From an uncultured Halobacteria archaeon (lineage in GTDB: Bacteria; Pseudomonadota; Gammaproteobacteria; UBA9214): 64,000 nucleotides of DNA. The first letter of the stretch is position 1; every line of letters starts with the position of its first letter. The DNA lies in the NCBI GenBank assembly GCA_963768575.1, contig CAVYIJ010000001.1, positions 9,106 to 73,105 of the forward strand, in the 5' to 3' direction. The notes beneath the pieces were generated by a model. That model had not been told where the DNA came from, ran no database searches, and was given only the letters and a program-made list of their open reading frames with translations. Made by a program: the position numbers and the translations under genes. Shown here one piece after another: positions 5,935 through 63,080 of this stretch.

Positions 5935-6046
5935 GTCCTGCGTCGTACTTAAGTCCGATGGACTGCTTTTAAAGGGAATGTAATAGTTGAATCAGGCAGG
6001 CGCGCTCCCTGCCATTTCGATGGTCTCGAACAACAAGGACAACACC

Positions 6047-22391: not shown

Positions 22392-22807
22392 ATAATTTGT
22401 CTCTCGTCCGCTCAACCCGGTTACGCGTGCAGTCGGGTAGCCGACTGGCCCGTACAATGGCCATTTGCCAGTCAATGGGAATGAGAAATCCCATCAAGAG
22501 GGTGAGGCAGGTATTCACTGTGCTGGACGGTTGCTGTGCGTATTCCATGGGAGCGCTTGTTGATTATTTGATAGTATTGTTTACAACATACAGCTGGAAA
22601 TAATTGGGGATGCAGGTTGATACATGCGGCCAACAGCCCCGGCAAAAATGGTTTGCTCGGAATCGGTAATTTACGGCGGGTCGCCGGTTTATCTCAAAAT
22701 CCGAGGCAGCACTATAACAATCTTGTCCAATACCCGCAAACATGCGCGGTTATATGCCGTACAGGCATTGTGGTCATAATCACACCAACAGTCATTGGAA
22801 TTCCTTT
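22392..22807. promoter_or_regulatory. Divergent rne / rluC intergenic region including the long rne 5' UTR
   Basis: 416 bp between divergent starts. In enterobacteria the rne leader is an autoregulatory structured UTR; that has not been checked here. Confidence 0.4.
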
Positions 22808-42613: not shown

Positions 42614-43465
42614 GCAGTCAGGCGCTGAAGGTCCTTGTGAACGGGCGCGCAACGGATTGTGTGCCGGGCACGGACCGCGGCCTGCTGTTCGGCGATGGCG
42701 TATTTGAAACGATCGCCCTTGCGGACGGTAAACCGCGTTACTGGGGCAGGCACATGGCACGCCTGCAAACAGGCTGCCACCGGCTAGGCATCGCGCAGGC
42801 CGACGAACAGCAGCTGCTACAGGACGTACATTCACTGGTGCGTGATGTGGAGAAAAGTGCGCGGCATGTCGTCAAGATTATCATCACGCGCGGACCGGGC
42901 GCTCGTGGTTACCGCCCGGACCCGGCTGCAAAGCCGACCCGTATCGTGCAATTGCATCCATGGCCCGGTTTACCAGGCGGGCGAGGAGGGCGTCCGCGCA
43001 ACGCTATGTTCGCTGCGTCTCGGTCATAACCCCTTGCTGGCCGGCATCAAGCACCTCAACCGGCTGGAGCAGGTCATGGCTCGCTCGGAGTGGGATAATG
43101 CGGATATTCGCGAGGGCCTGTTGCTGGACCAGGCCGGGCATATTATTGAAGGGACCATGAGCAACCTGTTTCTCGTTTTCAAAGGCGACCTGGTGACGCC
43201 GGACCTGTCGCGCTGTGGCGTGGCCGGCATTATGCGTGACATTGTGCTGCATGTCGCAGAGCAACAGGGCCTGTCGGTGAGTGTGCGCGACGTCAGCAAG
43301 GCTGAATTGTTTCAGGCCGATGAATTGTTCGTATGTAACAGCCTCATTGGCATCTGGCCGGTTGTATCACTGGACAGTAACCGCTATCCGCGAGGGCCGG
43401 TAACGACCGGGCTGCAATCGTTACTGGTTGATCATGACGATAACAGTCATAGCTGGCGATCATGA
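42610..43465 (+). pseudogene. pabC: Aminodeoxychorismate lyase (class IV aminotransferase fold) interrupted by a +1 frameshift near 42961-42972
   Basis: Frame 1 reads ...KIIITRGPGARGYRPDPAAKPTRIVQLHPWP then terminates. Frame 2 resumes ...VYQAGEEGVRATLCSLRLGHNPLLAGIKHLNRLEQV... through to the C-terminus. The switch is at TGGCCCGGTTTAC. Confidence 0.7.
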
Positions 43466-44548: not shown

Positions 44549-45162
44549 GCGGAAAGTTCATTACCGTCGAAGGGATAGAGGGCGTCGGCAAGACCACCAA
44601 CATCGAGTTCATCCGGCGCCAGTTGCAGGCTGCGGGGCGGGATGTGGTGGATACTCGTGAACCTGGCGGTACGCCACTGGGTGAGGCGATTCGTGGCCTG
44701 TTGCTGGACCCGCACTACACCGGCATGGATTCGACCTGCGAACTGGCGCTGATGTTTGCAGCACGCGCCGAGCATCTTGCGCGCATCATTCGGCCGGCGC
44801 TGGAGCAGGGCCAGTGGGTGCTGTGTGACCGCTTTACCGATGCCACCTATGCCTACCAGGGTGGCGGCAGGGGAATTGATACCGGAATCATCGCCAGGCT
44901 TGAAGCGCTGGTGCAGGGCGATTTTCGTCCCGACCTGACACTGCTGCTGGATGTGCCGGTCGAGGTCGGCCTGGCGCGCGCCGGCAACCGCAGCGACCCG
45001 GACCGCTTTGAGCGGGAACAGGTTGATTTTTTCGAGCGTGTGCGGCGCGCCTATCTCGAGATGGCCGGTGCGGAACCGGGGCGCTACCGGGTGATCGATG
45101 CAGCTCAGCCCCTGGACAACGTTCAGCAGCAACTCACGGCCGTACTTGCGGAAATGGTCTGA
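44545..45162 (+). CDS. tmk: Thymidylate kinase
   Basis: [15 protein letters not shown]-loop; DRF motif. Confidence 0.9.
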
Positions 45163-45352
45163 AACGGTGCGCTGGATGTTAAATCCACGACAGGGAATTA
45201 AATCGGCCCTCTATACGTCTTAGACAGGAGGGAGTGCAGATCAGGCATTTCCACAGCGACTGTGTGATTTTGATAATCCCCGGACGCGGCTAACGATCAT
45301 CTCTGTGTATAGAGATTCGGGATGGTTAACTTCTTTTTTCAGGAGGACAGAA

Positions 45353-45832
45353 ATGAAAACAATGAAATTGTGGGTGTCGCTGCTGGCCGCTGTTGCCTTG
45401 CTGACCGGCATGAATGCAATGGCGGGCGACCGGTACGGGAAACAGAAAGTGGTTTACCATATCAACTATGACGACCCGAATGCCCAGGCTGGCGCATTGA
45501 GGAATATCCAGAACCATATCAATGCAGTCGGCGCAGAGAACCTGGACCTGAAGGTGGTCATGCACGGCAAGGGGCTGACCATGTTGCTGACACCGGATGC
45601 TGCCGAGCGTACCAAGCTCAAGAAGGGCAATGCGACCGATGAGATACAGGCAAAAATAACCGGTCTCAAGGACCAGGGTGTCGGTTTTGAGGTCTGTTCA
45701 AATACACTGAAGGGAAAGAAAGTCGACTACATGCACGATCTGTACGACGTGGATGATGCCGATATCGTACCCAGCGGGGTCGCCGAGGTTGCGCGTCTGC
45801 AGGCAATGGGCTATGCGTACATCAAGCCCTGA
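45353..45832 (+). CDS. Secreted DsrE/DsrF/YchN-like (sulfur-relay fold) protein
   Basis: AGGAGG 6 nt before ATG 45353; signal peptide MKTMKLWVSLLAAVALLTGMNAMA; KVVYHINYDDP...VVMHGKGLTMLL...FEVCSNTL. Confidence 0.65.
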   Translation: MKTMKLWVSLLAAVALLTGMNAMAGDRYGKQKVVYHINYDDPNAQAGALRNIQNHINAVGAENLDLKVVMHGKGLTMLLTPDAAERTKLKKGNATDEIQAKITGLKDQGVGFEVCSNTLKGKKVDYMHDLYDVDDADIVPSGVAEVARLQAMGYAYIKP

Positions 45833-45850
45833 GCAAACATGCAGAGCATA

Positions 45851-45880
45851 AAAAAACCGGCCAGTCGGCCGGTTTTTTTT
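45851..45880. terminator. Bidirectional rho-independent terminator
   Basis: AAAAAA-CCGGCC-AGTC-GGCCGG-TTTTTTTT between convergent genes. Confidence 0.8.
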
Positions 45881-45903
45881 AGTCCTGTATCGCTCAGACT
45901 CGA

Positions 45904-46266
45904 ATATACACCCAGCCCTGCTGCATGCGGTCGACAATTTCCTCGAGTGCGCCGGGTATGACACGGGCCTCCGGCAGCAGGTGAACGTCGATGCCGCGCA
46001 AATGCAGCTTCTCGATCGTGCGGCTGCAGGCCAGGAAGCTGATGTTGTTGAACTGTTGTGCCAGGCGCTTGATGCGATCCGGGTAAGGCGACGTATCGGC
46101 ACGCAGCAGTGCGAGTCCATCCGCGTTGGCGACGACTTCCAGCTGTACCTGCTCCGGGTGGTCTTTATAGCTGCCGAGCAGCTCCTCGGCATCAGACAGC
46201 GCCTGGTCAAGGCGCTGTTCCTCGGCGCTGCTGATATGGATGACGACCCGTTTCAGTTCCGGCCTG
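45904..46266 (-). pseudogene. DsrE/YchN-like domain ORF lacking a canonical start. It probably was the periplasmic C-terminal domain of the adjacent anti-sigma factor and is now separated by a 1-nt frameshift near 46264-46276.
   Basis: Translation reads ...ELKRVVIHISSAEEQRLD...VQLEVVANADGLALL...ISFLACSRTIEKL...VYIRV*. No ATG/GTG/TTG start gives a product of 60 aa or more. It overlaps the anti-sigma stop (46207) by 60 nt in a different frame. The paralogous gene 47223-48063 has exactly this fused architecture. Confidence 0.5.
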
Positions 46267-46623
46267 ATTGCCGCCGTATTCGTCCAGTACGCTACTGCCT
46301 GATGATGGCGTGTCTGCCTTGTGCGACTGCAGCGATGTGCCGGTCAGGGTGCCGAGCGCGAAGATCAGTACGGCCGCGGCAGCCCTGGCCGGGGAGCGTG
46401 CCCACCAGCCGTGATTCCAGCGTAACTGTTGGGGAACTGGCTGCTCGATCTCGCGATAGGCCAGGCGCAGGGAGTCCTTGATCTGCAGCAGTTCGCAAAC
46501 GCGGCAGGCCAGTTCGTCATCCTGGCGCACGGCTTCCATGATCTCGGTGCGTTCGGCGACGTCGATTTCGTCATCGACAAATGCCTGCAGTTGCTCGTCG
46601 GAATAGCTGTCGCGGGTGCTCAT
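46207..46623 (-). CDS. Membrane-anchored anti-sigma factor (N-terminal anti-sigma domain, one TM, short periplasmic tail as currently framed)
   Basis: EQLQAFVDDEIDVAERTEIMEAV...CRVCELL; TM AAAVLIFALGTLTG; start overlaps the upstream ECF sigma stop. Confidence 0.7.
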   Translation of the reverse strand: MSTRDSYSDEQLQAFVDDEIDVAERTEIMEAVRQDDELACRVCELLQIKDSLRLAYREIEQPVPQQLRWNHGWWARSPARAAAAVLIFALGTLTGTSLQSHKADTPSSGSSVLDEYGGNQAGTETGRHPYQQRRGTAP

Positions 46624-47192
46624 TTGATTCTCCGTAATTTGGCGCGTACCAGGTCATGGCGCGGATCGAATTCCGCCAGTGCTGTTTTCAGCGCCTTTCG
46701 GGCGCGACAGATGCGGCTCATGACTGTACCGATCGGTATATCGAGGATCTCGGCGATTTCCGCATAGGAAAAGCCGGCCAGGTCGACCAGCGTGATGACC
46801 TGGCGCTGACCGTCCGGCAGTTGTGCGATCATTTGCCGCACCCGGTCAACGATGTCCTGGCGTTCGTTGCCATCCTCTGTCCATGGCTGACTTTCCGCGG
46901 GCAGGTTATCGATGTCGGCCATGTTGCGGTTGCTGCGCAGGTGATCGTACCAGCAGTTTGCGAGAATGCGTGTCAGCCAGGACTTGATGGCCTTGGTATT
47001 GTGCAACTGCTTGGCATTACGCAACGCCTTGACCATCGTGTCCTGCACCAGGTCATCGGCCAGTGCCGGCTGGTGACACCAGGAATAGGCCAGCTGGTAC
47101 AGCATTTGACGTCGTTGTTCCAGCTCGTGGCGGATTAATCGTGTGTTTTTGAACATCAGCGCAGCCCGTGGTGAATTTAACAGTATAATCAT
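46620..47192 (-). CDS. ECF (RpoE-like) RNA polymerase sigma factor
   Basis: Region 2 LVQDTMVKALRN, region 4 SYAEIAEILDIPIGTVMSRICRAR; AAGGAAAG 7 nt before ATG 47192. Confidence 0.85.
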   Translation of the reverse strand: MIILLNSPRAALMFKNTRLIRHELEQRRQMLYQLAYSWCHQPALADDLVQDTMVKALRNAKQLHNTKAIKSWLTRILANCWYDHLRSNRNMADIDNLPAESQPWTEDGNERQDIVDRVRQMIAQLPDGQRQVITLVDLAGFSYAEIAEILDIPIGTVMSRICRARKALKTALAEFDPRHDLVRAKLRRIK

Positions 47193-47222
47193 AACTATAA
47201 CTTACTTTCCTTATTGATGTCT

Positions 47223-48063
47223 TTAATCAGGACGGTATGTATGCTGCCTTTTATAAGACGGTATGCAGGCGGAATTTATTCCCGCGGCGGCGGAGGCAAT
47301 TCGGCTGCGACTGGAGGTGGACCAGGCCTCGGGCAGGGATTCGACCTTGATGTACTTCCAGTTCCCGCTCTGCAAGCGGTTGACGATGTGGTCAAAGGCA
47401 GTGGAGTCGGTGCTGACGCCCTGAATGATGGCGGGTTCGATGCCTTTCTTGCGGAGCATGCTGATGGCATTGGCGCAGCCAATGAAATGCACATTGTCGT
47501 ATTTCGCGAGCATCTCGACCATCTGCTGTTTGAGTGGAGAGACATCCTCGCGCATGATGTCCAGGCCGCTGGCGTGTGCGACCACGTCGATCTGATACCC
47601 CTGCGACTGGTGTTCCTGCAGGAATTTTTCAGCATAGGTAATGGCGGCGGTAAATTGCTGCGGGTTTGACTCGCTGATGTGCAGAATCACGTTGTTCTTG
47701 TCTGACTGCAGCTGACCGGACGAGGCGAGTAACTGGCCGGTGACGCCCGGTTGTCCCTGAAAGTACATGTGGCCCAGCATGCCGGCGCCGAAACTGATGG
47801 CCAGTGCAGCGATCGAGGCGGCCAGCCTGGGCGAGAACGGGAGCCAGCGCCGGCGTTTCTGTTTTGTCCGGCTGGACGGGGGGGAGGCGTCGCCGAAGCC
47901 CAGCTTCATCAGGTCCCGGGAACGACGCAGGCGATAGATGCGCTCGACGCAGTTCGGGATCGGTTTCCATGGCCTGGATGATTGCCTCACGATTGCCGGC
48001 ATCCACTTCGCCGTCAACGAACGCGCCCAGGATCTGATCGTTAAAATTGTTTGTGTCTTTCAT
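47223..48063 (-). pseudogene. Anti-sigma factor with periplasmic DsrE/YchN-like C-terminal domain (fusion), interrupted by a 1-nt frameshift near 47941-47955
   Basis: Frame A reads MKDTNNFNDQILGAFVDGEVDAGNREAIIQAMETDPEL... and parallels the 46623 anti-sigma N-terminus. Frame B continues ...CVERIYRLRRSRDLMKLGF...TM...KNNVILHISESNPQQF...HFIGCANAI..., a DsrE-like domain. The switch is at GAACTGCGTCGAGCG. Confidence 0.6.
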
Positions 48064-48068
48064 AATCT

Positions 48069-48614
48069 TTACTTCACCAGATAAACAGGGTCTTTGCGGG
48101 CCGGTGCAACATTTGACTGGTTTTCCATCCGCGCCAGAAGGTGCTTGCGTGCCCGGTGCAAACGACTCATGACAGTACCTATCGGTATTTCAAGTGCCAT
48201 TGCAACTTCGCAGTAGGACATCTCCTCAAGGTTGACCAGCGAAATTACCTGTCGTTCAATGACCGGCAGTGTCGCAACGGCCTGGCGTACCCGCTTTACA
48301 ATATCCGACTGTTCACAGTCCTCGACCGGTCCCGTTGCCTCGCTGGGCAGTTGTTCATCCAGCTCCACATGGTTTTTCTTGCTGCGCAAATAACTGTTCC
48401 ACTGATTATTCAGGATACTGTACAACCATGCGAATAATCGTTTCTCATCCCGTAATTGGGCTCGTTTGGCAATGCCGGTGGACAGGGTTTCCTGCACCAG
48501 GTCATCGGCCAGCATCTCATCGCCGCACCAGGCGAGCGCCACCCGATACAAACGGTCGCGACTGTCCACGATCCGGCAAGTCAATGACTTCGCCGGACAA
48601 TAGGGTATTTTCAT
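48069..48614 (-). CDS. ECF sigma factor, paralog of 46620-47192
   Basis: AGGAGAG 6 nt before ATG 48614 (MKIPYCPAKSL...); region 4 SYCEVAMALEIPIGTVMSRLHRAR. Confidence 0.85.
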   Translation of the reverse strand: MKIPYCPAKSLTCRIVDSRDRLYRVALAWCGDEMLADDLVQETLSTGIAKRAQLRDEKRLFAWLYSILNNQWNSYLRSKKNHVELDEQLPSEATGPVEDCEQSDIVKRVRQAVATLPVIERQVISLVNLEEMSYCEVAMALEIPIGTVMSRLHRARKHLLARMENQSNVAPARKDPVYLVK

Positions 48615-49103
48615 GACGCTCTCCTGTAATAGATGCTGCAAGCAGCCTGTTTATTCGCTTTATCAATCATTATTGTATGGACTGTCTCAGTATAACCACT
48701 GTGAATGCGATAATCCTTGTATTTTGATGTTCGGTATTTGTTATTTGTTGATCATAATAAAAGTACTGGCCGAATTGCCTGTTTCCCGGCCGGATGGAGT
48801 CCGGGGACGGTTTAATGGCCTGTTTCCCGTCTGATGGTTACCACACAAATACCGGAACTCGCTGCTTTCCACGCGTAAAGAGCTACTTGGTTGGCGTTCG
48901 CTGTGGAGCATCATCACTAAAATCGAATATCCTTATGTGCTGAAATTTATTTCTTCATGGTCTGACAAAGACTGAGAAATAAATGAATAAGTACACGGTG
49001 AGTTACCTCTACAAGTATACGGCGCACTCCGCGTGGAGGGTTTCCGTGTATGGAAATGAATTTCGAAATTTATTATTCACAATAAAATTAGGGGTGAGAT
49101 CTC

Positions 49104-50706
49104 ATGAAGAAATGTAATTTAACTGTAACCGCGCTTGCGGCGAGCATGGCCATGCTCGCCGGGAGCGCCATCGCGCACTCCAGGCTCAACAGGGCCCGGT
49201 ACACCGACCTGTATCGAGTCCAACATCATGATGGCCGATGCCGAGAACGCGCCGTTTTCGAACGACCCGGGGCTCGGCCGTGTGCTGGAGATGAATACCA
49301 CCACCGGTGAACGGGGTATCACGGTCGAAAGCCCGTTTTCAGACCCGCCTTGCGACTCCCCTCTGTCCTGACCATGTGACCTGCCCGGGTCCCTTCAAAC
49401 CCACGGGGAACGTATCCGGTGGCGAGGACGGTCATGCCTACCTGGTCAGTGCCGCCCAGCATGCGCTGATCGAGCACCATCGTGACGGCACGCCCATCAA
49501 GACGAGTCCCGCTCTGGCCGACATCGCCGTCCCCGGACGGTGGCAATTTCGGTTATGTGCCACGCCTGCTCGGTAACGGCTTCATGCCGAACGGCAACAT
49601 CGCGCAGACGGTCTGTGACGCCAACTTCTTCAATGCGGCGAATTCTGATTCGGTGAGCCCGAACGGCAACACCCATGTCAGCGGCAACGCTTCCAACCTG
49701 TTCTTCCCGCCGGTGTATGGCACCACCGACACGGGCCGCCAATGGCCGTGTTGTCATCGTCGACCAGGACACGATGGAGCTCGTCGACGAGTACAGCAAG
49801 CCCACCAAGGGACCCTATGCCAATGACCCGCGCTGGAGTTGCCCGGCAGGTGTCCTCTTCACCTCCGAGGGAATGTACGTGAGTATGTTCCACGGCGATG
49901 CGGTGTTCGTCATCGACTGGCGGGCTGGTATGGACAACGAGAAGAGTGAAGGGGTCGGTTCCAACAGCACGGCGGGCTTCAAACTCGGCAAGAAGAAGAA
50001 CGAGGCCAAGGTCATTCGCGTGATCGACCTGCAGGACACCACCGATAACGGTATCTCGGATGCTCCGGATGCACCCCTTTACAATTCCGGGAACCGCCGT
50101 GACAACCTGCGTGCCATCCGGATGTCCGAGGACGGCACCCTGTACGGTACCCGCCGCAGCCGTTCCCAGGAGTGTAATGAGAGGTGATGCCGGTTGTAAC
50201 CCGGGTGTGTTTCGCCAACATATCTTCATCGTGCACGAAGGTGAAAATAACAACTCCGGCGATACCATCGCCCTGGATCCGGGTGTGAACATCATCGCCG
50301 GTATCACCGTCAACCGCATGTCCGCACCGGGTTGCAAATTTGTCTCGGGAGGTTTGGATCCGACCACGGTGACCGGTGACATTTGTGACGTAGAGACCCT
50401 CTATGTCGGCGTCGTCCGCCGGTAACGCCGGTTGTGTCGCTACTGGTCCTGTAGGCGGCCAATCCTTGCTTCAAACCTGGCGGTACCTTGTATGAGTACC
50501 GCATTGATGCGGCGTCTCTCGACGGTGCGACCGGTCTATGTACAGGTAATCCGCTCGTTCCGGCCGAGAACGTGGGCTGTGCCATGCCGATTGCGCAGTT
50601 TGATTTCGTCAAGCAATCAGATAGCGGCGGAACGCTGCCAGATGGCACCATCGAGACGCTCGACCCGCGGATGGTGATGACGATCCACGAGGCGTTCGTT
50701 CAGTAG
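49104..50706 (+). pseudogene. Secreted protein gene of unknown function (possibly beta-propeller-like) fragmented by at least 5 frameshifts
   Basis: Signal peptide MKKCNLTVTALAASMAMLAGSAIA after GGGGTGAG. The coding signal continues through consecutive overlapping ORFs in alternating frames (49135, 49307, 49482, 49675, 50060, 50488) up to ...MVMTIHEAFVQ*. It has repeated V-I/F-V-I-D blade-like motifs. Confidence 0.5.
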
Positions 50707-50770
50707 AATGAACCCACGATCAGCCGGAGCCTTTAGTAAACCGGCTGAAACGTGGTAGTAAGCAGTGATA

Positions 50771-50806
50771 CCCGGTGGGCATGTATTGCCCGCCGGGTTT
50801 TTTTTG
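50771..50806 (+). terminator. Rho-independent terminator
   Basis: CCCGGTGGGC-ATGTATT-GCCCGCCGGG-TTTTTTTTT. Confidence 0.75.
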
Positions 50807-51003
50807 TACGGCGCATGAACATGCACCAATAAAAACGTACCGATCATGGTTTGCGCTACGTAGTCTTGCAGGGCGTGTACTTGTGCCCGGAACGGGTATA
50901 AATACCTCTTGACTATATTGTGCGCCGAATTGAGCTGGATGGGTTGCCAAAGAGATCAAACCCACGCTAGTATTTTAAAACCTGGTAATTGGAGTTTTAC
51001 CCA

Positions 51004-51747
51004 ATGAAGTACCTGATTCCTTTTTTATTTCTACTCACGCTGTGCGGCTGTGACAATCAAATCCGCGTGGGTCACAAGACAGCAACAAGGTGGCTCCTGA
51101 GAAGACCGAGAGCTATCTCGATAAACCCGTCAAGGGGCAGGTAAACCAGCGCGGCCTGTACAAGTTGCTACGCAGTGGCGGGGTGGTTGACGATCCCAAC
51201 ACCAGTACCGGCAAGGCGGTCGCGAACCCGGTGATTCAACAGGTCAAGTCGACGGAGCGAATCCCCCTGATCAAGGGCGCCCAGATGTACCTGCAGTACC
51301 GGATCTGGCCTCTCCCGGACCAGCCGGTCCTATATCGACCTCAGGCGGGTGTTGAAGCACCCCGAAATGACCCTGCCCGATGGGTCGGTCTCCACCGGCT
51401 CCGACTCTCCGATGAAGGGCAAGGTCAGTGTCAACCAGGCCATCGGCTATACCGGGTACGGCTTCGACGAGGACTACGAACTGGTCGAGGGTGACTGGAT
51501 CTTTGAGATCTGGTACCAGGATAAAAAGCTGATTGAACAGAAATTCACGACCTACTGGCCGGATGAAGAAGAGGTAGCCGAATTGAAGCAGATGCTGGCG
51601 CCACAAAAGAGCCTGGTGAAAATGGCTTCACCGGACGATAAAGGGGATCCCAGATTAAATTGGCCCAGGGTAACGATAGATATTGGAGAAGACCCGGTCA
51701 CGGAACCAACAGTGTCATCGAGCAATTCTTCAGACAACTCTGATTAA
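51004..51747 (+). pseudogene. Lipoprotein gene of unknown function with two frameshifts (about 51085 and about 51335)
   Basis: MKYLIPFLFLLTLCGC lipobox; the body continues in frame 0 (VAPEKTESYLDKP...) and then in frame 1 (...GYTGYGFDEDYELVEGDWIFEIWYQDKKLIEQKF...). Confidence 0.5.
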
Positions 51748-52588
51748 TTTGTGCATTTTGTCATTGCGAGCGCAGTATAGCAATCTCATAAATCGTGAGG
51801 CATTCTCTAACAATCTATACAACAATCGTATGGGATTGCGGCGTAGCTTACGCTCCTCTCAATGACGGCCTGTACACACCGTGTCATCACAATCATTAAT
51901 ACCGTAGCGTGATGGTGCGAAAGCTTCGCGTCAGGTGACCCAGGAGTACCACCAGGAACAGCATCATCTCGAGCATCTCCAGGCTTTTCTCCAGAGATTT
52001 TGCAAAATTTAGAATTGCACAGGCTTCATTCCGCAGGTCGCTTCAAACCAGTCATACTCTTCAATGATGCCTTCTATGAAGTTCTTTTCTTACGGAAAAT
52101 GTGAAACAGAAAAAGGTCGCAAGAACGGCTAATTTCTCATTGCGGGGAGATAGCTCCGTCTAAAATATAGTACAGGATGTCAACAATGCTCGATAGTCTT
52201 TACAACTGGCTACTACTGGCTGATAAATATTTTTCTTTACAAGCAAGCCATGCATGCGAGATTTATATGTTCAACTATCAAGTAAATACCCTGGAAAGTG
52301 TTTATGATCTATTTGAATATATAACACCTGCTCTGATCTTCCGGCAGCGTGACTAAAACGCTTCTGTCTTAATATCTGCCGTCCGCGTGTGCCAGTCGGA
52401 GAATAAAACTACCCGTGCTGGACGTCTGCAAGATAGGTGAAAAACAGGTCCGTCAGCTTTGTATGACGCGAATTAGACAGTTCTCTTCGACTTGCCGCAA
52501 GCAACTACAACAATCGAGCGCAATATACCAAGTAGAAAGATTATGCATCTTGTATAAGAGACGGGTACATCAATTGGAGGAAGTAATA

Positions 52589-53309
52589 ATGAAACGATTA
52601 TCCAAATCTAAAAACAATTACCACGCTGATCGGGGGGCTTACGCTTTCAGGCGTTGTCTGCGCCGGCGCGGTTGTCATTAATGATGAAATGCCCAGAAGA
52701 GCGCCGGGCAGCACCAGCGGTAGTGGCGACACGGTTGAAGCCAACTGCCCGACCGATCCCAGTGGCAATGACTGGCAGGGTGCCACGGCTGAACTCATGG
52801 TCCGGCAGGTCGGCGGTGGCAGCACCGTGGATATCGACGTGAAGAATGCAGTGCCCAACACGGTGTTCACTGTCTGGATGCGTATGGCAAGGGCGGTGCC
52901 GGGTTCAATGACGATCGGCAGTCCCATGACCGGTGGTGGCGCGACGCCACTGGCTGCCGGGAACTGCCTGGATGGTGCTGCTTCAACTACCGCCTCCGGT
53001 TCCAGCCGGCAGGCAGCGCCAATCCGACCAACGGCTTCACCACGAATGCCAATGGCACAGGTCACTTCAGTATCGATCTGGATTTCCCGGTCGTTGGTGG
53101 CGCCTATCCATTCCAGAAGGCAAGCGACGCCGCTGGCAGGCCTGATCAATGCTGAAGCCTGGCTCCAGAATGTACCCACACCGATCGTCAACCCGGCAGA
53201 TCGCAATATCGGTGGACCGTTCCTGCTCCGCGTGATTTCGCACTGCACGGACCAGCAGGGTCATGGCCTGTCCCCGGGTGTACGTGAAGCCTGGTTCCAG
53301 TATCCGTGA
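52589..53309 (+). pseudogene. Secreted protein gene of unknown function with frameshifts (A-run 52610-52614 and about 2 more internally)
   Basis: GGAGGAAG 5 nt before ATG 52589. MKRLSKSK then a shifted frame gives a signal peptide ITTLIGGLTLSGVVCAGAVV. The middle part is protein-like only in a different frame (FNYRLRFQPAGSANPTNGFTTNANGTGHFSIDLDFPVVGG). Confidence 0.5.
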
Positions 53310-53765
53310 GTGGATTTGAGTTATTGTTAGCTAAGTAACAATAAAGTCGTTTGTAACAGCAAAGGGTGCTGCCTTGCAGGCAGCGCCCTTTTTATTACGG
53401 TTGTACAGGGCCGGGAGGGAAGTACTTGCGGCCGTGCGAAGCATGATAATAGCCATGCTGTTGGTCCGGAGCATTAAACCCGAATGAATCCGGTCGGCAA
53501 CAGATATTATTTATTAGGGTAAACCCTGAGTGAATTCGAGCTCATTCCCTGGTTATGTTATGCATCTCCTCGAAATGTTCATGTATTAATTCACAGCAGC
53601 AAGGCATCACACCGCTCAAATATCACATCGTTCATAAATTATTTGGAATAAATCGACCCTGCTTTCCATCTACTATAAGCGGCAAGACGACGGCCATAAG
53701 AATATCAGCCAATTATTATAGCTATTAACGGCTGGTGGGAGATTCAGCGTCGACAGGGGGGGGTA

Positions 53766-55204
53766 GTGGAGGCACCTAGAATATTGTGTGTCGATCTACG
53801 GCATGGCAGGGAGTCGCCGTGTGCGCAATATACACTGGGCAGTGCCTACCACACGGAAGTCGTCGATAACCATTGTGTTATTGATAGTTACATTGAAAGG
53901 TTTCAGCCCGGTATATTGTGTTTCGATTACGATCTGCCTGATCAAACGGGACTGATGGCGCTGGAGCAAACCCGTTCCCGGCATCCGATGGTTACCAATA
54001 CTGATGCTAACCACGGGATCACTCCGTGGAGTTGGCGATCTGGGCCCTGAGGTTACGCGTGTGGGACTACTTCACGAAGCCGGTGGGGATCGATGAGTTG
54101 GTCAATAGTATTGCCGGATTGCCTGAAATGAAACCAGGCACCTGCAAGCATGGAGGAGACTACTGGGCGATTCAGCCTCTTGATCTTCCAGAATCCCGCT
54201 CGTTCGGGACCACTATAAAGAAAATACCAACAGCGCTAGCGACGACCTATGTTCGGGAACACCTGGACAAGAAAATCAGCCTGGAAATCGTGTCCAAACT
54301 ATGCGGCATGAGCAAATCCCATTTCAGCCGGTCATTCAAGAACGACCACGGGATTACATTTCAGAATTATCTCGCCCAACAGAGGATAGATAGGGCATTA
54401 GCCCTGCTGAAAGATTCCGATATGCAAGTAACCCAGGTGGCCTTTGCAGTTGGATTCACTGAACTTTCCAACTTTACGCGGACATTTCAACGTCATATCG
54501 GCATGAGTCCTTCATATTATCGCAAGGCGATCACTTCCCGGCTATTACAGATAAAAGACCGAAGAAGCCAGTCTACGAAATTCCCGAAGGCAAATCCGAA
54601 CCCGGTACTTTCCGTTGGCCCGGATGGTTTGCCGGATTTTGTGAATCCTGCCGCGTCATATTTGCTTAAAGAGATCGGCCTGGAGAATGTTGAATACATC
54701 TTGCCAACCAATCACCGGGTGCTGGTAAAAACATCCCTGGATACCAACATGCCGATGAGTGAAGAACGCAGGATCGCGGGTCGGACCATTGTATGGTCGT
54801 ACTGCCCGATCGATGATAGTGAAACAGTTCACCTCTATGGCAATGATGTATCCGATTATGTTTCTGATAGCCCCGGTGTTGAAAGTATTTCCAGGGAAAG
54901 CACGAACCCGGTGCTTTCGCTGGAGCCGGACGGTGAGCCGCGATTTATGAATTCGGCAACATGCCAGTTACTTGAAGAATTGAAACTGGAAAATATCGAG
55001 GAAATTTTGCCTTCCAACCATACAAGCCTTTTGAAAGCCTGCCTGAAAACCAGCACGCCACTGGCTGAAGAGTGCAGAGCGGCAGGCAGAACAATAATCT
55101 GGTCGTATCATCCTGCCAACAGTAATGACGTGATTTATGTCTATGGGCAGGAAGTGTCCGGTTGCGCCGGCAAAAGTAGCAGCAACAAAGTTTCAGTCAT
55201 CTAG
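53766..55204 (+). pseudogene. Response-regulator-type transcription factor with the architecture REC - AraC/XylS HTH - two tandem PAS-like repeats; the REC domain is broken by two frameshifts within about 45 nt (53975-54020)
   Basis: REC reads ILCVDLRHG...ILCFDYDLPDQTGLMALEQTRSRHP (frame 0), then LPILMLTTGSLRG (frame 1), then SVELAIWALRLRVWDYFTKP (frame 2). AraC HTH: ISLEIVSKLCGMSKSHFSRSFK...VTQVAFAVGFTELSNFTRTFQR. The C-terminus has two ~100-aa repeats NPVLSxxPDGxPxFxNxA...AGRTIxWSY. Confidence 0.6.
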
Positions 55205-55743
55205 CCGATCCAGTGAACGGTCATTATCGGATTAATCATATGACAGTATCCATAGATTATTATTCCGCTCCTGTCTGTTCAATTTGAAGAATTCAGGACA
55301 GGAAGAAGCAGCCAGTGGTTCAAAGTGGCGATAATGGCTTAACGGTCGGGCTATACTCAGCGGAGATGTAGACAAGCCATAACTAGAGCGCAGCAATTCT
55401 GCGCCAGGAAGTAATATCAACAAAATAATCAATATATTTAGTTAGATGCAGATTAATTATCATGTTGTTTATAACAAATAAACAATCGTGGCGGTTACCG
55501 GGGGCAAATCAGTATCTGAATAATGAAGTAGCGTCGCTGTGCAATGACGGAATAAAAAGCAGGACAAAAGAGTCTTATTTTAATAACAAATATAACGAAC
55601 CGGGTGCCAGGGGTATAAAAAACACTTGCAGAGGCATGGTGAAAACCTGCGCCGGCGCGTCCTGTGCCACGCATATATTGTGCTGACCCATAGCAACAAC
55701 CCTCACATCAGGCGCATAACATGGCTGGAACGAAACGATAAAT

Positions 55744-58196
55744 GTGACGGTACGGTGGACAATTAATCTGCAATACCCGTTATCAATTCCGGCTCTGTGG
55801 TCGATACTGCTGCTGGTCATGGTCGTGCTCAAGCCGGCGCCATGTATGGCAGCAGATCCGGAGATGAAAATAGGCGTGCTTGCATTTCGTGGCGCACAGG
55901 CGGCCCGCGAAATGTGGCAACCCACGGCGGATTATCTCTCCAGCAGTATCTCAGGATACCACTTCAGGATTATTCCTCTGGACCTGCAAGGCATGCGCCA
56001 GGCAGCCCGGGAGCGCAGCATAGACTTTGTATTGACCAACCCCGGAAACTACGTAGACCTGGAAGCCCGCTATGGCGCCTCACGTCTTGCGACGTTGCGC
56101 AATTTTCGCCAGGGAAAGCCCTACACTGTATTTGGCGCCGTAATTTTCACGAGCGCCGGCCGTGCCGACATAAATACCTTGCGGGACCTGAAGGGAAAAT
56201 CGTTCATGGCTGTAGGCGAGAATGCCTTTGGTGGTTTCCAGATGGCCTGGCGGGAACTCGAGGAGGTGGGTGTCGATCCTTTCGGTGATTTCAGCCGTAT
56301 AGAATTCTCCGGTTTCCCGCAGGATAACATCGTGTATGCCGTAAGGGATGGAAAAGTGGATGCGGGAACTGTTCGCAGCGATACGCTTGCCCGCATGGCG
56401 CAGGAGGGAAAGATCGAACTTTCCGGTTTTCGCGTCCTTAACGAACGCAGCAGTCCGGGTTATCCCTTCTCTCTCAGTACCCGCATTTACCCGGAATGGC
56501 CCTTTGCCAGGTTGGGCCATACGTCCGAGGAACTGGGACAACTGGTAGCGATAGCGCTGTTGACGCTGCCGGCCGATAGCGCGGCGGCAATAGCGGGGAA
56601 GTCGGCGGGATGGACAATCCCGCTTGACTACGGACCGGTACACGATCTTTTCCGCACGCTGCAAATCGGTCCATACGAGACCATGGGCGAGGTCACACTC
56701 GCCAGGGTACTGGCTCAATATTGGCGCTGGTTATTGGCGGGCCTGGTTGTACTCATGGTCATGGGGCTGGTCATCACTTATGTGTTGCGTATCAATCGGC
56801 GGCTTGGCTTGTCGAAACGGGTGCTGCAAAGGGAGGTGGCAGAACGCAAACAGGCCCAGACACAACTGGCGCGTCACCGGGACACACTGGAACAGGAGGT
56901 ACAGGCGCGCACGCAGGAATTACAGGAAGACATTCGAGCGCGCAAGCAAGCTGAGGAAACACTGCGCCGCAGTGAATCAGCCCTGCGCCGGTTGCATGAA
57001 ATAACGACGTCGGCTGATCTGGATTTCCAGGGTAAATTGCGTGAGCTTCTGGAAATGGGCTGCGAGCATTTTGAGTTGACGACCGGCCTGTTCTCCCGGA
57101 TCCACGAGAAAAGCTATGAGATCGTCGAGGTAGTTTCACCCGATGCGCGTTTTGTAAAGGGCGGACTAATGTCGTTAAAGGATACTTTTTGCCAGGTTGT
57201 TCTAGCCTCGCGGGGAACTGTTGCCATTAAGGATATTGGGCAATCGGCGTATCGGGATCTGCCGGTAGTTCAGCACATGGGGCTGGAAACCTATTTCGGT
57301 GCAGCGGTGCAGGTGGCCGGTGATATCTTCGGGACGCTGTGTTTTTTCAGCACTGATCGCCGCGAGACGCCGTTCTCATCAGTGGACAAGGATATCCTGC
57401 AACTCGTGGCCCAATGGATAGGCGAGGAAGTCGAGCGCCGGAATACCCAGGACCAGGCGCGCCGGCATCAGGATGCGCTGGCCCACGTATCGCGGCTTGG
57501 CGCCATGGGTCAAATGGCTTCGGCACTGGCGCATGAACTCAATCAACCGTTAACCGCGGTAGTTAACTATACCCGGGGATGTATTCGGCGACTGCAAACC
57601 CGTAGCGAAGATGCCGGGGCGCTGGTGGGGGCAATGGAGCAAGCGGTAGCCGAAGCCGAGCGGGCAGCGGAAATCATTCGCGGACTGCGCGAGTTCGTCC
57701 GCAAGGACGAGTCACAACGGGCGCTGATCGCAATCAATACAGCAGTTCACGAGGTAGTCAACATCGCCGAGGTCGAGGCCCGGCAGCAGGGAATAGCCCT
57801 GGATCTGGACCTGCAGGATTCCCTGCCTGGAATTGCGGAGATATGATCCAGATACAACAGGTCATCCTGAATCTTGTTCGCAACGGTCTGGAAGCCATGG
57901 CCAATGAAAGCCTGGAGGACAAATGCCTGTATATAAGTACGGCAATGTCGGACGATGAGACGGTTGAAGTGGTCGTCAGGGACACGGGATGCGGATTGCC
58001 TGCAGTGCCCGTAGAAGATGTGTTCCATCCATTTTACACCACCAAAAAGGGGGGCATGGGCATGGGGCTGTCCATCAGTCGATCCATCATCGAGGCGCAT
58101 GGCGGCCGGTTGCATGCCGAGCCAGCCAGGGGTGGCGGCAGTATCTTTCTTTTTACCCTGCCGGCTCTCATGGAGAAACTTGAATATGGGTCGTGA
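55744..58196 (+). pseudogene. Sensor histidine kinase with periplasmic PhnD/SsuA-like solute-binding domain (TtrS-like) plus GAF, HisKA and HATPase_c. A 1-nt deletion in a G-run (57835-57846) splits off the HATPase_c domain.
   Basis: Periplasmic KIGVLAFRGAQAAREMWQPTADYL...; TM; coiled coil; GAF; H-box HVSRLGAMGQMASALAHELNQPL. The frame stops at ...LPGIAEI* and the N-box IQIQQVILNLVRNGLEAM plus GMGMGLSI continue in the next frame. Confidence 0.65.
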
Positions 58197-58812
58197 ACCT
58201 ACCGTGTATGTGGTGGACGATGACCAGGCAGTGGGAGATTCACTCAGCTGGTTGATCGGGTCCATCAATCTCAATGTAGAGATGCACGGGTCGGCCCGGT
58301 CATTTCTCGAGGCCTGTGATCCGGCGCATTCCGGATGCCTGGTACTGGATGTAAGAATGCCTGGCATGAGCGGCCTCGACCTGCAAGAGGAACTGGTCAA
58401 CCATGGCATTACCCTGCCAGTCATTATTATCACCGGTCATGCGGACGTACCCATGGCAATTCGGGCAATGAAAGCAGGTGCATTCGATTTCGTGGAGAAG
58501 CCTTTCAATGACCAGGTATTGCTGGAACGTATTCAGGAAGCCATCAAGCGCGACGCCGACGCCCGCCAGCATGCCGCGCAATGGTTGGCCATAGACTCCC
58601 GCATTGCAACATTGACCAGGCGCGAACGGGAAGTCATGGATTGCGTGGTGGCGGGTAAATCCAACAGGCAGATTGCTGATGAGCTGGGGGTGAGTATGAA
58701 AACCGTGGAAGCCCATCGTGCCAACATGATGGTGAAGATGTCAGCGGACAGCCTGTCTAATCTCGTGGAAATGGTCGTGCTGTGGCGCGAAAACAGGAAA
58801 AGCCGCGCCTGA
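58186..58812 (+). CDS. FixJ/NarL(LuxR)-family response regulator (TtrR-like), cognate to the upstream kinase
   Basis: MGREPTVYVVDDDQAVGDSL...LDVRMPGMSGLDL...; C-terminal LuxR HTH REREVMDCVVAGKSNRQIADELGVSMKTVEAHRANMMVKM; start overlaps the kinase stop by 11 nt. Confidence 0.85.
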   Translation: MGREPTVYVVDDDQAVGDSLSWLIGSINLNVEMHGSARSFLEACDPAHSGCLVLDVRMPGMSGLDLQEELVNHGITLPVIIITGHADVPMAIRAMKAGAFDFVEKPFNDQVLLERIQEAIKRDADARQHAAQWLAIDSRIATLTRREREVMDCVVAGKSNRQIADELGVSMKTVEAHRANMMVKMSADSLSNLVEMVVLWRENRKSRA

Positions 58813-59210
58813 AGCCGCTAATCCGGGAATCGCGCCTTAAACGAGGCTGCCTGGCTATCTGCATCCCAATCCAAGATCTTTTCCGGCCGGCAATTGGAAC
58901 CTGACTCAAAATCCTGCATGCCCTTATCGGACCTCTTTGTCGTCGTTCCCGCAGAGGCGGGAATCCGGGAGTGCATGAAATGAACCGTGGATGCCATGCC
59001 TTCGCAGGCTAACGGCATATTGATGCTGGGCCAATGTAGAGACGGGTTCTAGTGGAAACAGACGCTTGTATCTGGGCCCTGCTCTAGATCCTGAAGTTAG
59101 GGAATCCCCGACATGATAGCTGCCCGCTAATATGAATAGCGGTAGACGGTTGCCGTACGCAAGCTCAGGTATTTGCCTGAATTGAGGAGGAAGCATTCAT
59201 ATTTGCTTAA

Positions 59211-60715
59211 TTGACCAAGCTAAAAACTGCCGTTTATCAGGAAGCTGCTGGTTGCAGCTTCGGCGGCGACACTGGCCATGTCTTCCGCAGCATTCGCCAA
59301 TGACTCAGATAGTGATAGCCTGGTCGGGCTTGCCATCACGTGATCGTGATCGTGATCGTGATCGTGATCGCACGTCGTACACTCTGCAAGGACCGTGCGC
59401 GTTCCTGCCCGCAGACCGGGCAACCGAGTTTCACGGTAATCCCGACCGGTCCAGGTTGAACCTGGGTATGGCGGGTAACCAGTGGGTGGTGTTCGAGAAA
59501 GCCATGCAGGAGTTTAATGTTTACATCGGCAAGGGTGACGGCAGTGAGCCGGCATACCGACCCAACGATGCGAACCGCTTTACACTGGCCGATCTGAATG
59601 TTAAGGCAAACCGCTACTTTATCGAGCTGATTCCGCCCGGCCAGATCCGCGCGCAAATCAAATCCGGCTGCATGTTGCTCGGCAATGATGAAGACCGCAA
59701 CTTCCTGCCCGGAAATTTCCAGGTGGATTTCGACGTGTTCGCATCTACCAACTACAACCTGATGCAGGACCTGGCGAATAACGGTTTCATCGACGAGGCC
59801 GTCCCCTATATCAGTAACCGCCTCGACCTGATGGTCGCTGTCGGCAATCCCAAAGGCATTGGCAACACTGTGCATACCGGTAATGCCGACTTCGATACCC
59901 AGTTCGACATCATCATGGACCTGTTGTCCGGCGATGTGATTGCATCATCGCTTGATCACATCAACGAAGGTATCCATAACGCCGCCAACAATTACATGAA
60001 GAACGCGCATACCTGGGTCAAGGCCAATGATCCCGGGACACTCATTCCCATGACGTACACCTATGCAGATGGCAGCGTAGATACCACTTCCAAGACGGCT
60101 TCAGACTGGATCCAGGCCGCCCTGGCAAAGGTTGCCACACCGATGGCGGGGTCACCGGGTGAACTGCGTTTGATCAGTGGGGATGCAGGTGAGAATCATA
60201 CCTCGCATGACCTGGTTGACCAGGGCTGCGGTACTGCGGGTGACCTGCAGTTCTGCGAATATGCCGTCCTGAACAAGGCCAATACCCATGAGTCCCGCGT
60301 ACACCACGTGGAAACTCCAGGCGGCATCGTGGGCGACCCCGGTTTTGTGCCTGTGGATGTAGGTTATGTCTGGATCACCGAGCTTGCCTTCCAGTTGAAT
60401 AACGGTAATTTCGCTGTGCAGGGCATGGTGGGTGACCAGAATATCGCTGACCTGGGAATTCCCCGTCCGGCCGGTTCAACGAATGTCAACAATGACATTA
60501 CCTACTCGCTGGCCTTACTGGCAACTTCCAAACACAAGAAACGTGGACGCCAGTTCATTGATTTCCTCCGCAGCCCGCAGGGACAGCAAGTGTATACGGA
60601 TGGTGGCTTCACCGGCCTGACGTCAACCCAGCTGGATGAAGGCAGATGTTATGCCAAACCTGTAGCCGGTGTTTCTGTTGCCACAATCCGGAACGGCGAT
60701 CGTTCGTGTCGATGA
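59211..60715 (+). pseudogene. Secreted protein of unknown function; the signal-peptide region is out of frame with the body (at least 2 frameshifts near 59240 and 59335-59375)
   Basis: GAGGAGG at 59185. A signal-peptide-like KLLVAASAATLAMSSAAFANDSDSDS sits in one frame and terminates in the hexanucleotide repeat. The 470-aa body (59252 frame) is in another frame. Confidence 0.5.
59340..59372 (+). repeat. Hexanucleotide microsatellite (GATCGT) x5.5 encoding (DR)n at the signal-peptide / mature-protein junction
   Basis: CGTGATCGTGATCGTGATCGTGATCGTGATCGC; translates to RDRDRDRDRDR in the long ORF frame and to TGA-containing codons in the signal-peptide frame. Confidence 0.85.
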
Positions 60716-60765
60716 TTGGCTTAGAAACAATTAAACACATCGCCTTGTTTTAATTGATTGTCCTG

Positions 60766-60797
60766 AAGGGCCGGTACTTACCGGCCCTTTTTTATTA
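60766..60797 (+). terminator. Rho-independent terminator
   Basis: AGGGCCGG-TACTTA-CCGGCCCT-TTTTTATT. Confidence 0.8.
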
Positions 60798-61462
60798 CTC
60801 TGAATTTTAACCTTCAGATGACTATTAATATCCCGGCGTTGACTTGCTTGATCAATGCCTTCAAAGTGTTGAGAAAATGCAGTCAAACTATAATAAAAAT
60901 ATGACATTCACAGTGGCGGATAAATTCATGCATCCGTTAACAGGTTGGCAGGGAAGCCAAAGGGATGGCGCCCTAAGTTATGAGTACTAACTTGCCAAGA
61001 TACCACCCATCAGATCCTTGCCGAGGACTTCGTCGATGGCGGATTCAGTGCTCTTACCGGCAGCGAGCCGGGTGAGCGTTATTCACTGGACAGAAATGGT
61101 GATCTCGTTATAGAGACCTTCACGCCCTGATACAGTTTGTATATCTCGCGGCCTGCCCGGTTTTACCGGGCAGGCCTTTTTAATGCCCTGTTCGACGCAC
61201 TTTATCAGTAAAGTCAATTACCTGCATCGACATTGTCTGCTTGCCCGGAGACTGTATCGCAGGTGTCATGACGGTTTTCCAAAGATTTATATTCGTCGTG
61301 TTCGGAGCAGCAAAACATAAATATCAGGCATGAAAAGACAAACTATTCAGTGATTGCAAGGAATGTTAAATATCAAGCGCAATATGCCAAGTATTTCGCA
61401 TGTATAAAACATATAAATGACCAGTATGCAGAAAACGTATCGCACTTAAATGGAGGGACTTT

Positions 61463-62986
61463 TTGATGAATATAAAAATAGTATTATTGCCCGTTGTGCT
61501 CGGCCTGGCCTGTGCACCTTTGAGTGCGTTTGCGGCAACGCCAAAGGAGTGCCCGCCTGGACTCGAAGCGGATGCTCCGACTGTTCCCCTGTCAATGGAA
61601 CAGGCAGACATCAACAGCGGCGCGCTCAGCTTCGACGAGATCAACGATCACGGTAAAGCACTGTTCGTCGCCAAGTTCAACACCTGCGACGGTCGGGGCC
61701 GTCCGGAGACCACCGGTGGCGGCGCCAAACGTGCGGTGCCAACCTTCGACGAAGAAGGTGAACCTGTAGACGCCGGGCCAGATAGCCAAGCTGCGCACCT
61801 CGGCGCCGGATTCCGACGCCTGTGCCGGCTGCCACAATGATCCCGAGGTCGGCGGTGCCGGTGATTTCGTCGCCAACGTGTTCGTACTGGCGCAGACGCT
61901 CGATCCGGTCACCCTCTCGGTGAGCCCCTCGAGAAGCAACAGCCGCAATACGCTGGGCATGCACGGCGCTGGCCCGATCGAAATGCTGACCCGCGAAATG
62001 ACCACGGATCTGCAGGCCCAGTTCGCCGCCCTGCCGGCCGTTGCCGGCACGTATACGCTCACCACCAAGGGCGTGGACTTCGAGGTCGATATCGACGGTG
62101 GCAAGAATGTCGTTGAAGCCGAGGGCGTCGATCCCGACCTGGTCGTCAAGCCGTTCCACCAGGCCGGCAAGGTCATCTCGCTGCGCGAGTTCTCCACCAA
62201 TGCCATGAACCACCACCACGGCATGCAGGCCGAAGAGCGTTTCGACCTGAACCCCGCCAAGGGTTTTGATCCGGACTTCGACAACGACGGGTACGAGCGC
62301 GAGCTGACCATCGGTGATCAGACCGCGGTCTCCATCTGGCAGGCGCAGCTGTCCACCCCGACCCAGGTGATGCCCAAGAAGAAGGCTGATCGCGAGCATG
62401 GTCGAGCACGGCGAACAGGTGTTCGACGATGTCGGCTGCACCTCCTGCCACGTACCCGGAAATGGTGCTGAACACCCGTGACTTTGTCGAGCCCAACCCG
62501 TTCAACCCGCCGGGCACCTGTGCCAGCGCCGCCGATGGTTGTCCTGATTACTCCTTCGACATGACCAAAACCGGCGACAAGCCGCGTCTGGAGAAAGGCC
62601 CGAACGGTACCGCCATTGTCCGTGCCTACACCGACCTGAAGCGTCACAACCTGTGTGACGATCCGGGACCGGGTGCCATCCGCTGGTTCTGTAACGAGCA
62701 GCTGGCGCAGGGACGTGCAGACCAGGACGGCAAGCCGGGTACCGAGTTCTTCCTGACCCGCAAGCTGTGGGATGTCGGCAATACCGCGCCTTACGGTCAC
62801 CGCGGTGACGTCACCACCATCACCGAAGCCATTCTGCTGCACGGTGGCGAGGGACGTGCCTCGCGCGATGCGTTCGAAGCGAGTTCTGCTGACGATCAGA
62901 AAGCACTGGTGGCGTTCCTGAAGACCCTGCAGATCGTGCCCCAGAGTGCTGCTGGTAACGGTGGTAACAATGGTAACAATAGATAA
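61463..62986 (+). pseudogene. DUF1111-type di-heme cytochrome c peroxidase-like / 'thiol oxidoreductase' family protein, broken by about 4 frameshifts
   Basis: Signal peptide MMNIKIVLLPVVLGLACAPLSAFA. Two CxxCH motifs are found in different frames (DACAGCHNDPEV at about 61815-61850; DVGCTSCHVP at about 62440). The C-terminal part ...TAPYGHRGD...LLHGGEG... is in a third frame. Confidence 0.6.
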
Positions 62987-63048
62987 CGACAACTGAGTAC
63001 AAAGGAGTCTGGAACAACCAGATTTACCTTGATTATTTACTGATGGAT

Positions 63049-63080
63049 GGCCGGCCCCTGAGGGGGCCGGCCTTTTTTCT
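63049..63080 (+). terminator. Rho-independent terminator
   Basis: GGCCGGCCCCT-GAG-GGGGCCGGCC-TTTTTTCT. Confidence 0.8.

Follow-up and report, generated by a model that had tools for sequence, protein, structure and literature searches.

A stretch of 64,000 nt from contig CAVYIJ010000001.1 (assembly GCA_963768575.1), here called the window, contains between 45.16 and 63.1 kb a block of regulatory and secretory genes whose reading frames are interrupted repeatedly in the deposited sequence. The intact gene order of this block is most likely tmk, a DsrE-family gene, two pairs of extracytoplasmic function (ECF)-type sigma and anti-sigma factor genes, and genes for a beta-propeller protein, a DUF3859 lipoprotein and a 238-aa secreted protein. 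It most likely continues with a REC-AraC regulator, a Phosphonate-bd/GAF sensor kinase, a LuxR-type regulator, a solute-binding protein (SBP), a di-haem oxidoreductase (DHOR) and a TPR lipoprotein. The initial annotation left two explanations for the broken frames, namely that the block is an island undergoing pseudogenisation or that the assembly is locally of low quality or strain-heterogeneous, and both are weighed here together with other possible origins.

Frame disruptions along the window

About 27 single-base frame disruptions are found in the 45.16-63.1 kb block, 21-23 of them coding, against one to three in the first 45 kb (proven in pabC and probable in rne). The ratio of event rates between the block and this core is 17.6x for the lowest count and 68x for the most liberal one (p = 3e-9 to 4e-14), so the roughly 20-fold jump described in the initial annotation was a fair estimate. 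In every 4-kb bin as far as 44 kb, 33-97% of the sequence lies in stop-free stretches of at least 250 codons, a share that falls to 1% in 48-52 kb and 37% in 52-56 kb. In a frame-specific (three-periodic) Markov coding model trained on the long open reading frames (ORFs) of the core, the core appears as a succession of genes each in one frame; after 45.9 kb the coding signal changes frame, on the same strand, in all long genes, in accordance with the earlier statement that nearly all long genes from 46 kb onward are split. Because both the ORF landscape and the frame hopping in the Markov model point the same way, the frameshift feature is real in the deposited sequence.

The events were mapped with our own protein-to-DNA aligner that permits frame shifts, using as guides homologues from related loci and from a large protein collection. 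In low-similarity linkers this aligner produced spurious paired shifts (-1/-1 plus a stop at 53133/53171, -1/+1 at 46448/46393 and +1/-1 at 47888/47829), and each pair was exchanged for the single +1 that the open frames support.

Both anti-sigma genes with a DsrE-like C-terminal domain, on the minus strand, are split, as had been proposed, and have one shift each: the first copy (45897..46623; 242 aa) by one extra base at 46284-46285, and the second (47223..48063) by a +1 near 47949, for which six different homologues gave the same site. Seven +1 shifts (~49182, 49348, 49508, 49725, 50182, 50414 and 50454), in line with the previous count of at least five, interrupt g49 (49104..50706, plus strand), the gene of a secreted beta-propeller-like protein of ~532 aa. 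A frameshift-aware alignment of g49 with an intact 535-aa protein (P0001) runs from Met to stop, with 442 of 524 residues identical, exactly seven +1 shifts and no in-frame stops. Among the matches listed for the repaired protein, more than 100 are full-length homologues of 487-610 aa, and the family is therefore considered to be normally a single ORF. In the DUF3859 lipoprotein gene (51004..51747, plus strand) the L161 and L025 homologues place the two expected shifts near 51055, as a -1 or two +1 in a variable linker, and near 51330, as a +1. The gene for a secreted ~238-aa protein (52589..53309, plus strand) is also split, with four +1 shifts instead of the suggested three or so (52610 in an A5 run, ~52974, ~52999 and ~53130), according to an alignment to the 251-aa L161 protein and a three-frame view.

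Further downstream, the REC-AraC regulator gene (53766..55204, plus strand) has two +1 shifts, as claimed, which are separated by 19 nt (at ~53994 and ~54013, each an extra base; reported as within 45 nt) and follow from a three-frame reading of the PILMLT ... WDYFTKP motif. After repair the Pfam domain Response_reg spans the junction (E = 1e-11), while the unrepaired fragment has no match at all. The sensor kinase gene (Phosphonate-bd, GAF, HisKA and HATPase_c; 55744..58196, plus strand) has the one shift assigned to it, a -1 at ~57836 at the HisKA/HATPase_c junction, as indicated by Pfam domains spread over two frames and by alignment with the L001 and L061 homologues; the 3.8 kb upstream are event-free. 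For the periplasmic SBP (SBP_bac_11; 59211..60715, plus strand), whose gene contains a simple sequence repeat (SSR) and was said to carry at least two shifts, two +1 would fall in the signal-peptide region (~59245 and ~59320), to judge from signal-peptide-like sequence in frames other than that of the mature protein. Homologues align shift-free from 59357, and the mature part (59357-60712) is intact. The DHOR (DUF1111) gene (61466..62986, plus strand) is split as stated, and three extra bases (61779, C; 62396, G; 62458, G) rather than about four were found in its coding sequence (CDS).

The short genes are intact as previously listed, namely those for the DsrE-family protein (45305..45832, plus strand), the two ECF-type sigma factors (46620-47192 and 48069-48641, both minus strand) and the TPR lipoprotein (63437-63994, minus strand), on the evidence of the ORF list, Pfam and blastx against relatives, and that for the LuxR-type response regulator (within 58018-58812, plus strand), which is 93.5% identical to L163 and gap-free. 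Four extra bases are non-coding (45162, 45171, 45334 and ~63061). Three of them (45162, A; 45171, G; 45334, T5->T6) lie in the tmk-DsrE spacer (45162..45334) at the left edge of the error-dense block and could alternatively be true strain differences. The fourth, at ~63061, falls within the terminator hairpin 3' of the DHOR gene (63040..63075), where the window has G5 and L163 has G4; the hairpin reads GGCCGGCCCCTGA-GGGGCCGGC in L163 as opposed to ...TGAGGGGGCCGGC in the window, whose 3' arm is one base too long for the stem.

For the first 45 kb the initial annotation named indels in rne and pabC only, of which the latter is now proven by L168 and L169 and the former remains probable. The only proven frameshift of this core is thus an extra C (C->CC) at 42973..42974 in pabC (42610-43465, plus strand), and protein-guided alignment gives the same +1. 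In rne (minus strand) a +1 probably lies near 20640-20690, after the catalytic half: the Pfam domains RNase_E_G, S1 and Thio are located in 20640-22475, and the Arg-rich C-terminal half, with RRSRRGRRGGRRR-type sequence in the three-frame view, continues in the +1 frame (ORF 20033-20686). The rne shift is called only probable because no close comparator was found.

The strongest pattern, absent from the initial annotation, is the +1 regularity: 25 of the 27 events are +1, that is, one extra base in the window (two-sided binomial p = 6e-6). The earlier remark that several shifts fall in homopolymer runs holds for three of the ten exactly mapped events (runs of at least 5 bases), and the others lie outside such runs. 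A higher number of homopolymers is ruled out as a cause, as runs of at least 5 bases are equally dense in the core (2.04 per kb) and the block (2.17 per kb), and so is a lower G+C, as the 25-30 kb segment has a G+C of 0.47-0.53 and yet intact genes. The events are distributed unevenly: 16 fall in 49.18-54.01 kb, and the following 3.8 kb (54.0-57.8 kb) are free of them (p = 0.007 if the rate were uniform). They are densest where public relatives are distant or the co-occurring population is divergent (best protein match 78% in 49-54 kb; 87% nt identity in 61.8-63.1 kb) and sparse where other samples are 99.5-99.8% identical. Insertion sites showed no consistent link to substitutions nearby when the window was compared with close contigs.

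Comparison with independent assemblies

The core proteins of the window occur on a 428,483-bp contig in NCBI/ENA, and what the depositor called as genes within the block are the fragments. A comparison with close relatives, as the initial annotation recommended, used four contigs of the same population (L167, L168, L169 and L170) and one that is a close relative only (L163, 87% nt identity), and it yielded intact pabC, anti-sigma and DHOR genes that lack precisely the extra bases of the window. For instance, PabC is intact at 284 aa in the Logan contigs L168 and L169, which are 98.0-98.6% identical to the window at the nucleotide level and whose sole gap is the extra window C at 42974. Another Logan contig, L167, is 99.75% identical to positions 45889-47081 and encodes an intact 242-aa anti-sigma factor, the sole gap being the extra window base at 46285; this amounts to 1 indel per 2 substitutions, a ratio far from natural spectra. 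L163 has an intact 505-aa DHOR, and the only CDS gaps relative to the window are the insertions at 61779, 62396 and 62458. None of the five tested lesions (46285, 42974, 61779, 62396 and 62458) is present in the comparators L163 and L167-L170.

Contigs of the JGI metagenome 3300045962 are 99.5-99.8% identical to the window over 38.1-42.8 kb with zero gaps. One contig of this metagenome and of the same species (L165) aligns to 43.2-46.2 kb with 98.3% identity; its sole gaps are the three extra window bases just after tmk, and the 2 kb left of 45162 align without gaps. Over ~11.5 kb of same-species alignment (L164-L170), all five distinct gaps are extra window bases and none is a deletion. We also observed a substitution hot spot against L165 at 45139-45410 (24 mismatches in ~270 nt versus ~1% in the flanks), which extends from the tmk stop through the spacer into the beginning of the DsrE gene. 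According to the literature on sample accessions, ERR14888714 is an EMO BON marine metagenome. Public short-read data in which the same population is present are the runs ERR12040029, SRR28061007, SRR28061021 and SRR28061035 as well as JGI 3300045962. Scans of genome and metagenome contigs for the kinase returned relatives of at most 54% identity and no close comparators, and exact-protein look-ups of the TPR lipoprotein, one sigma factor and mltG gave no match.

The first anti-sigma gene is informative in another way. L170 (98.9%) carries a 243-aa allele with an additional GAC/ACG triplet exactly at 46285, and the population is hence polymorphic in length, with one or two GAC/ACG triplets giving 242- or 243-aa alleles (L167 position 797; L170 669-670; window 46284-46285). 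The window is +1 against the L167 allele and -2 against the L170 allele. Since the two alleles differ by 3 nt and the window is of intermediate length, it has the form expected of a mixed-haplotype consensus.

Origin of the extra bases

We consider it very likely (probability about 0.9) that the frame disruptions of the block are consensus or polishing insertion errors in a strain-heterogeneous, poorly polished segment and not marks of a decaying island. The second explanation of the initial annotation is supported in that the extra bases are absent from near-identical assemblies, represent one error type and, at 46285, fall on a 3-nt polymorphism. The events would then be an artefact of building the 428-kb contig, whose consensus either acquired single extra bases, and lost one or two, at that stage or retained such errors uncorrected. 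The sequenced population would have been heterogeneous in the affected region, rendering polishing ineffective. The technical route was probably a long-read or hybrid metagenome assembly in which short reads or mixed haplotypes could not correct the segment. Correction of the contig may have relied on reads that map well to conserved parts alone, which the distribution of events fits, and the sequence at 46285 may be a blend of two alleles differing by one GAC/ACG triplet. The same type of +1 error is found at low rate in core housekeeping genes (proven in pabC, probable in rne). False frameshifts caused by indels are a known problem in long-read (meta)genome assemblies (bioRxiv 10.1101/2021.08.23.457338; also PMC9262707 and PMC12007338). 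Moreover, consensus polishing requires coverage, localized intra-population heterogeneity can lead to unpolishable regions, and insertions dominate the raw errors of PacBio (bioRxiv 10.1101/2021.08.23.457338).

Several points weigh against a technical origin. The densest part, 49.1-54.0 kb, has no near-identical comparator for the exact strain; the technical cause is inferred; and the sharp local contrast needs an added assumption about local coverage, heterogeneity or failed polishing. In addition, nanopore consensus errors are typically biased towards deletions and homopolymers, unlike the insertion-only errors outside long homopolymers seen here. The block also holds one genuine rearrangement, the replacement of an SBP allele with a 3' remnant at 61028-61127, and is therefore a truly dynamic region.

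The first alternative, genuine and very recent pseudogenisation, would mean ~23 real frameshifts and a decaying island with dead regulators and secreted proteins. The shifts are indeed present in the deposited sequence with fragmentary gene calls, the region is strain-variable and has a real recombination scar, and a g49 homologue in another metagenome-assembled genome (MAG; L033) is likewise frameshifted. To examine the genes in repaired form, the extra bases were deleted and one N was added at -1 events. The eight repaired CDS (10,032 nt), each running from start to stop, have no internal stops, and these 10 kb are free of nonsense mutations, truncations and insertion sequence (IS) elements, which argues against decay. 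The repaired genes match full-length homologues, with 84-98% identity in three. With a stop probability of 0.03 per random substitution in the repaired genes and an assumed substitution:indel ratio of 10:1 for 21 indels, ~6 nonsense codons are expected if the indels were neutral, whereas none was seen (P(0) = 0.002).

Nor do the repaired genes show relaxed constraint. The dN/dS of repaired DHOR against L163 is 0.14, compared with 0.09 for the neighbouring intact response regulator, and there is no lineage-specific excess of amino-acid changes: with eight outgroups, DHOR has 6 unique residues in the window lineage (two of them at a hand-made junction) versus 22 in the intact sister. For g49 the window has 15 unique residues and the sister 10, a non-significant difference, where an inactivating indel followed by six others would predict ~43 extra changes. 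Hence, mixed lesions (nonsense, truncation, IS insertion) and a raised dN/dS were not found in the block genes, whose lesions are 1-nt indels only. Seven shifts in one gene would need long neutral evolution, yet no other trace of it is present. Nearly all events are 1-nt insertions outside long runs, the opposite of the natural indel spectrum, which mutation-accumulation studies show to be deletion-biased and run-dependent. Furthermore, near-identical strains are intact, and pabC has the same type of error. Pseudogenisation, the first explanation of the initial annotation, is thus unsupported by nonsense mutations, relaxed selection or the comparators, and appears improbable.

It is still less probable that the contig is correct for a minority sub-population, such as a local hypermutator lineage, and that the differences are true strain polymorphisms. 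The intergenic bases at 45162-45334 lie in the substitution hot spot against L165 and could be natural, and the population is polymorphic in length at 46285. However, a minority haplotype leaves unexplained the frame-breaking insertions in ~nine genes under purifying selection and the indel:substitution ratio near 1:2 against L167, and mutators of the mismatch-repair type target long runs, for which no enrichment is seen here. A recent regional burst of single-base insertions, with the extra bases real at ~1.4 per kb over 18 kb and almost no substitutions, is very doubtful as well; if true, it would point to an unknown, locally acting mutagenic process that favours insertions in the variable regulatory and secretory block. 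Finally, recoding of genes functional as written, by programmed ribosomal frameshifting, transcriptional slippage or editing, has the strong +1 bias and the +1 shifts of the L033 homologue of g49 in its favour but seems effectively refuted by the intact orthologues, given that the mapped sites have no common motif, slippery sequence or adjacent 0-frame stop, that the shifts are not conserved in near-identical and related genes, that the homologues listed (the best 120 each for g49, DHOR and anti-sigma) are single full-length ORFs, and that non-coding DNA, a terminator stem among it, has acquired extra bases of the same sort.

If the extra bases are consensus errors, as we favour, the affected genes are most likely intact in the organism, and the genes for the sigma and anti-sigma factors, the kinase and DHOR should be regarded as functional. 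Read literally, the deposited sequence would have the block annotated as a dead island, together with DHOR, a two-component system and an ECF sigma/anti-sigma(DsrE-like) system with a putative link to sulfur, and metabolic or regulatory inferences drawn from it would be wrong; the artefact explanation rescues ~nine genes. The case also indicates how false and true pseudogenes may be told apart without reads, namely by the direction and type of indels, by the absence of nonsense codons and relaxed selection, and by short-read contigs of the same population. The result carries no wider biological significance.

Gene content and true variation of the block

The term 'accessory block' used in the initial annotation is appropriate in part. 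The left part (tmk-DsrE-anti-sigma-sigma) occurs in other samples with 98-99.7% identity and the right part (response regulator-SBP-DHOR-TPR) is syntenic in L163. In more distant relatives the kinase module follows directly after tmk, and 45.2-55.5 kb is therefore variable in content. Neither a tRNA nor an integrase or IS was found in the block (ORF list; Rfam over the window), which is thus not a classical island. No Rfam family was detected anywhere in the window, and hence no tRNA or integration hallmarks flank the block.

The two ECF-type sigma/anti-sigma pairs (45897-47192 and 47223-48641) are tandem paralogs. Members of the conserved anti-sigma family have 240-243 aa and cross the membrane once, between an anti-sigma segment at the N-terminus and a periplasmic DsrE-like domain at the C-terminus. 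More than 100 members are among the matches listed, mostly without a Pfam match, and the family is widespread in sulfur-oxidiser-like Gammaproteobacteria. This composition suggests an uncharacterised signal-sensing module.

A model predicted for g49 (pLDDT 70, pTM 0.75) gave only generic beta-propeller matches in a fold search (TM 0.35/0.53), and the search indicated no function for the family. Its gene belongs to a conserved exported trio, consisting of the ~535-aa beta-propeller-like protein, the DUF3859 lipoprotein and a ~240-250-aa protein, which is found at 49104-53309 of the window, 313-3558 of L161 and 10001-14144 of L162. The three genes are linked in differing orders on unrelated contigs and have no assigned function. 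In L033 (7253-8841; MAG contig CBDTYI010000017.1) the g49 homologue extends over three frames with at least two +1 shifts and a poorly matching middle, while its neighbours are intact; either a similar artefact or a genuine pseudogene could account for this.

The window allele of the SBP gene (59211-60715) is divergent, matching L163 in no more than isolated patches at 74-80% nt identity. Downstream come a terminator of its own, ~310 nt of AT-rich DNA and finally the last 33 codons of an L163-type SBP gene (61028-61127, ~94% identical). The segment 58792-61127 is a recombination scar and, independently of base-level accuracy, a true structural difference. A perfect hexanucleotide repeat, (GTGATC)5 at 59340-59370, encodes (Asp-Arg)5 in frame after the signal peptide, a position at which SBP homologues have Asp/His/Ser-rich linkers.

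Other observations concern single genes. The REC-AraC protein has an unusual C-terminal extension of ~220 aa after the helix-turn-helix (54540-55204), made of two ~100-aa repeats (NPNPVLSVGPDG.../TNPVLSLEPDG...) without a Pfam match. Outside the block, the 5.2-kb gene at 5987-11218 (1743 aa) has internal tandem repeats, antisense ORFs every ~726 nt within 6.7-9.5 kb and a local G+C of up to 0.65. For the DHOR region at 62429-62986, other public assemblies have a cluster of near-identical C-terminal fragments of only 128-208 aa, one of them on a 54-kb contig, and these short fragments may be contig-end truncations or similar frameshift artefacts.

Relation to known systems

Programmed +1 frameshifting is known from the prfB/RF2 type, and transcriptional slippage from A/T runs. 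The block resembles the prfB/RF2 type in the +1 direction but differs in having no conserved slippery site or adjacent stop, multiple shifts per gene and events in non-coding DNA as well. To SSR phase-variable contingency loci it is similar in the (GTGATC)5 of the SBP gene and the variable GAC/ACG triplet at 46285. However, its frame-breaking events lie outside repeat tracts, and its repeats, with units of 6 nt and 3 nt, keep the frame because each length change is a multiple of 3.

Pseudogene-rich decaying regions occur, for example, in Mycobacterium leprae, Shigella and recently host-restricted symbionts. They share with the block that adjacent genes are frameshifted in a compositionally distinct, strain-variable segment, but the block has no nonsense codons, deletions, IS, relaxed selection or lesions shared with close relatives, and its indel spectrum is the wrong one. 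The closest parallel seems to be the indel errors of long-read or hybrid assemblies, which are addressed by proovframe, Kastor and short-read polishing. Although the errors of the block differ from these in being almost purely insertions and mostly outside long homopolymers, the two are alike in single-base indels without substitutions, in split gene calls that jointly cover a full-length homologue, in a low genome-wide background combined with locally unpolishable strain-heterogeneous segments, and in intact genes in short-read assemblies of the same population.

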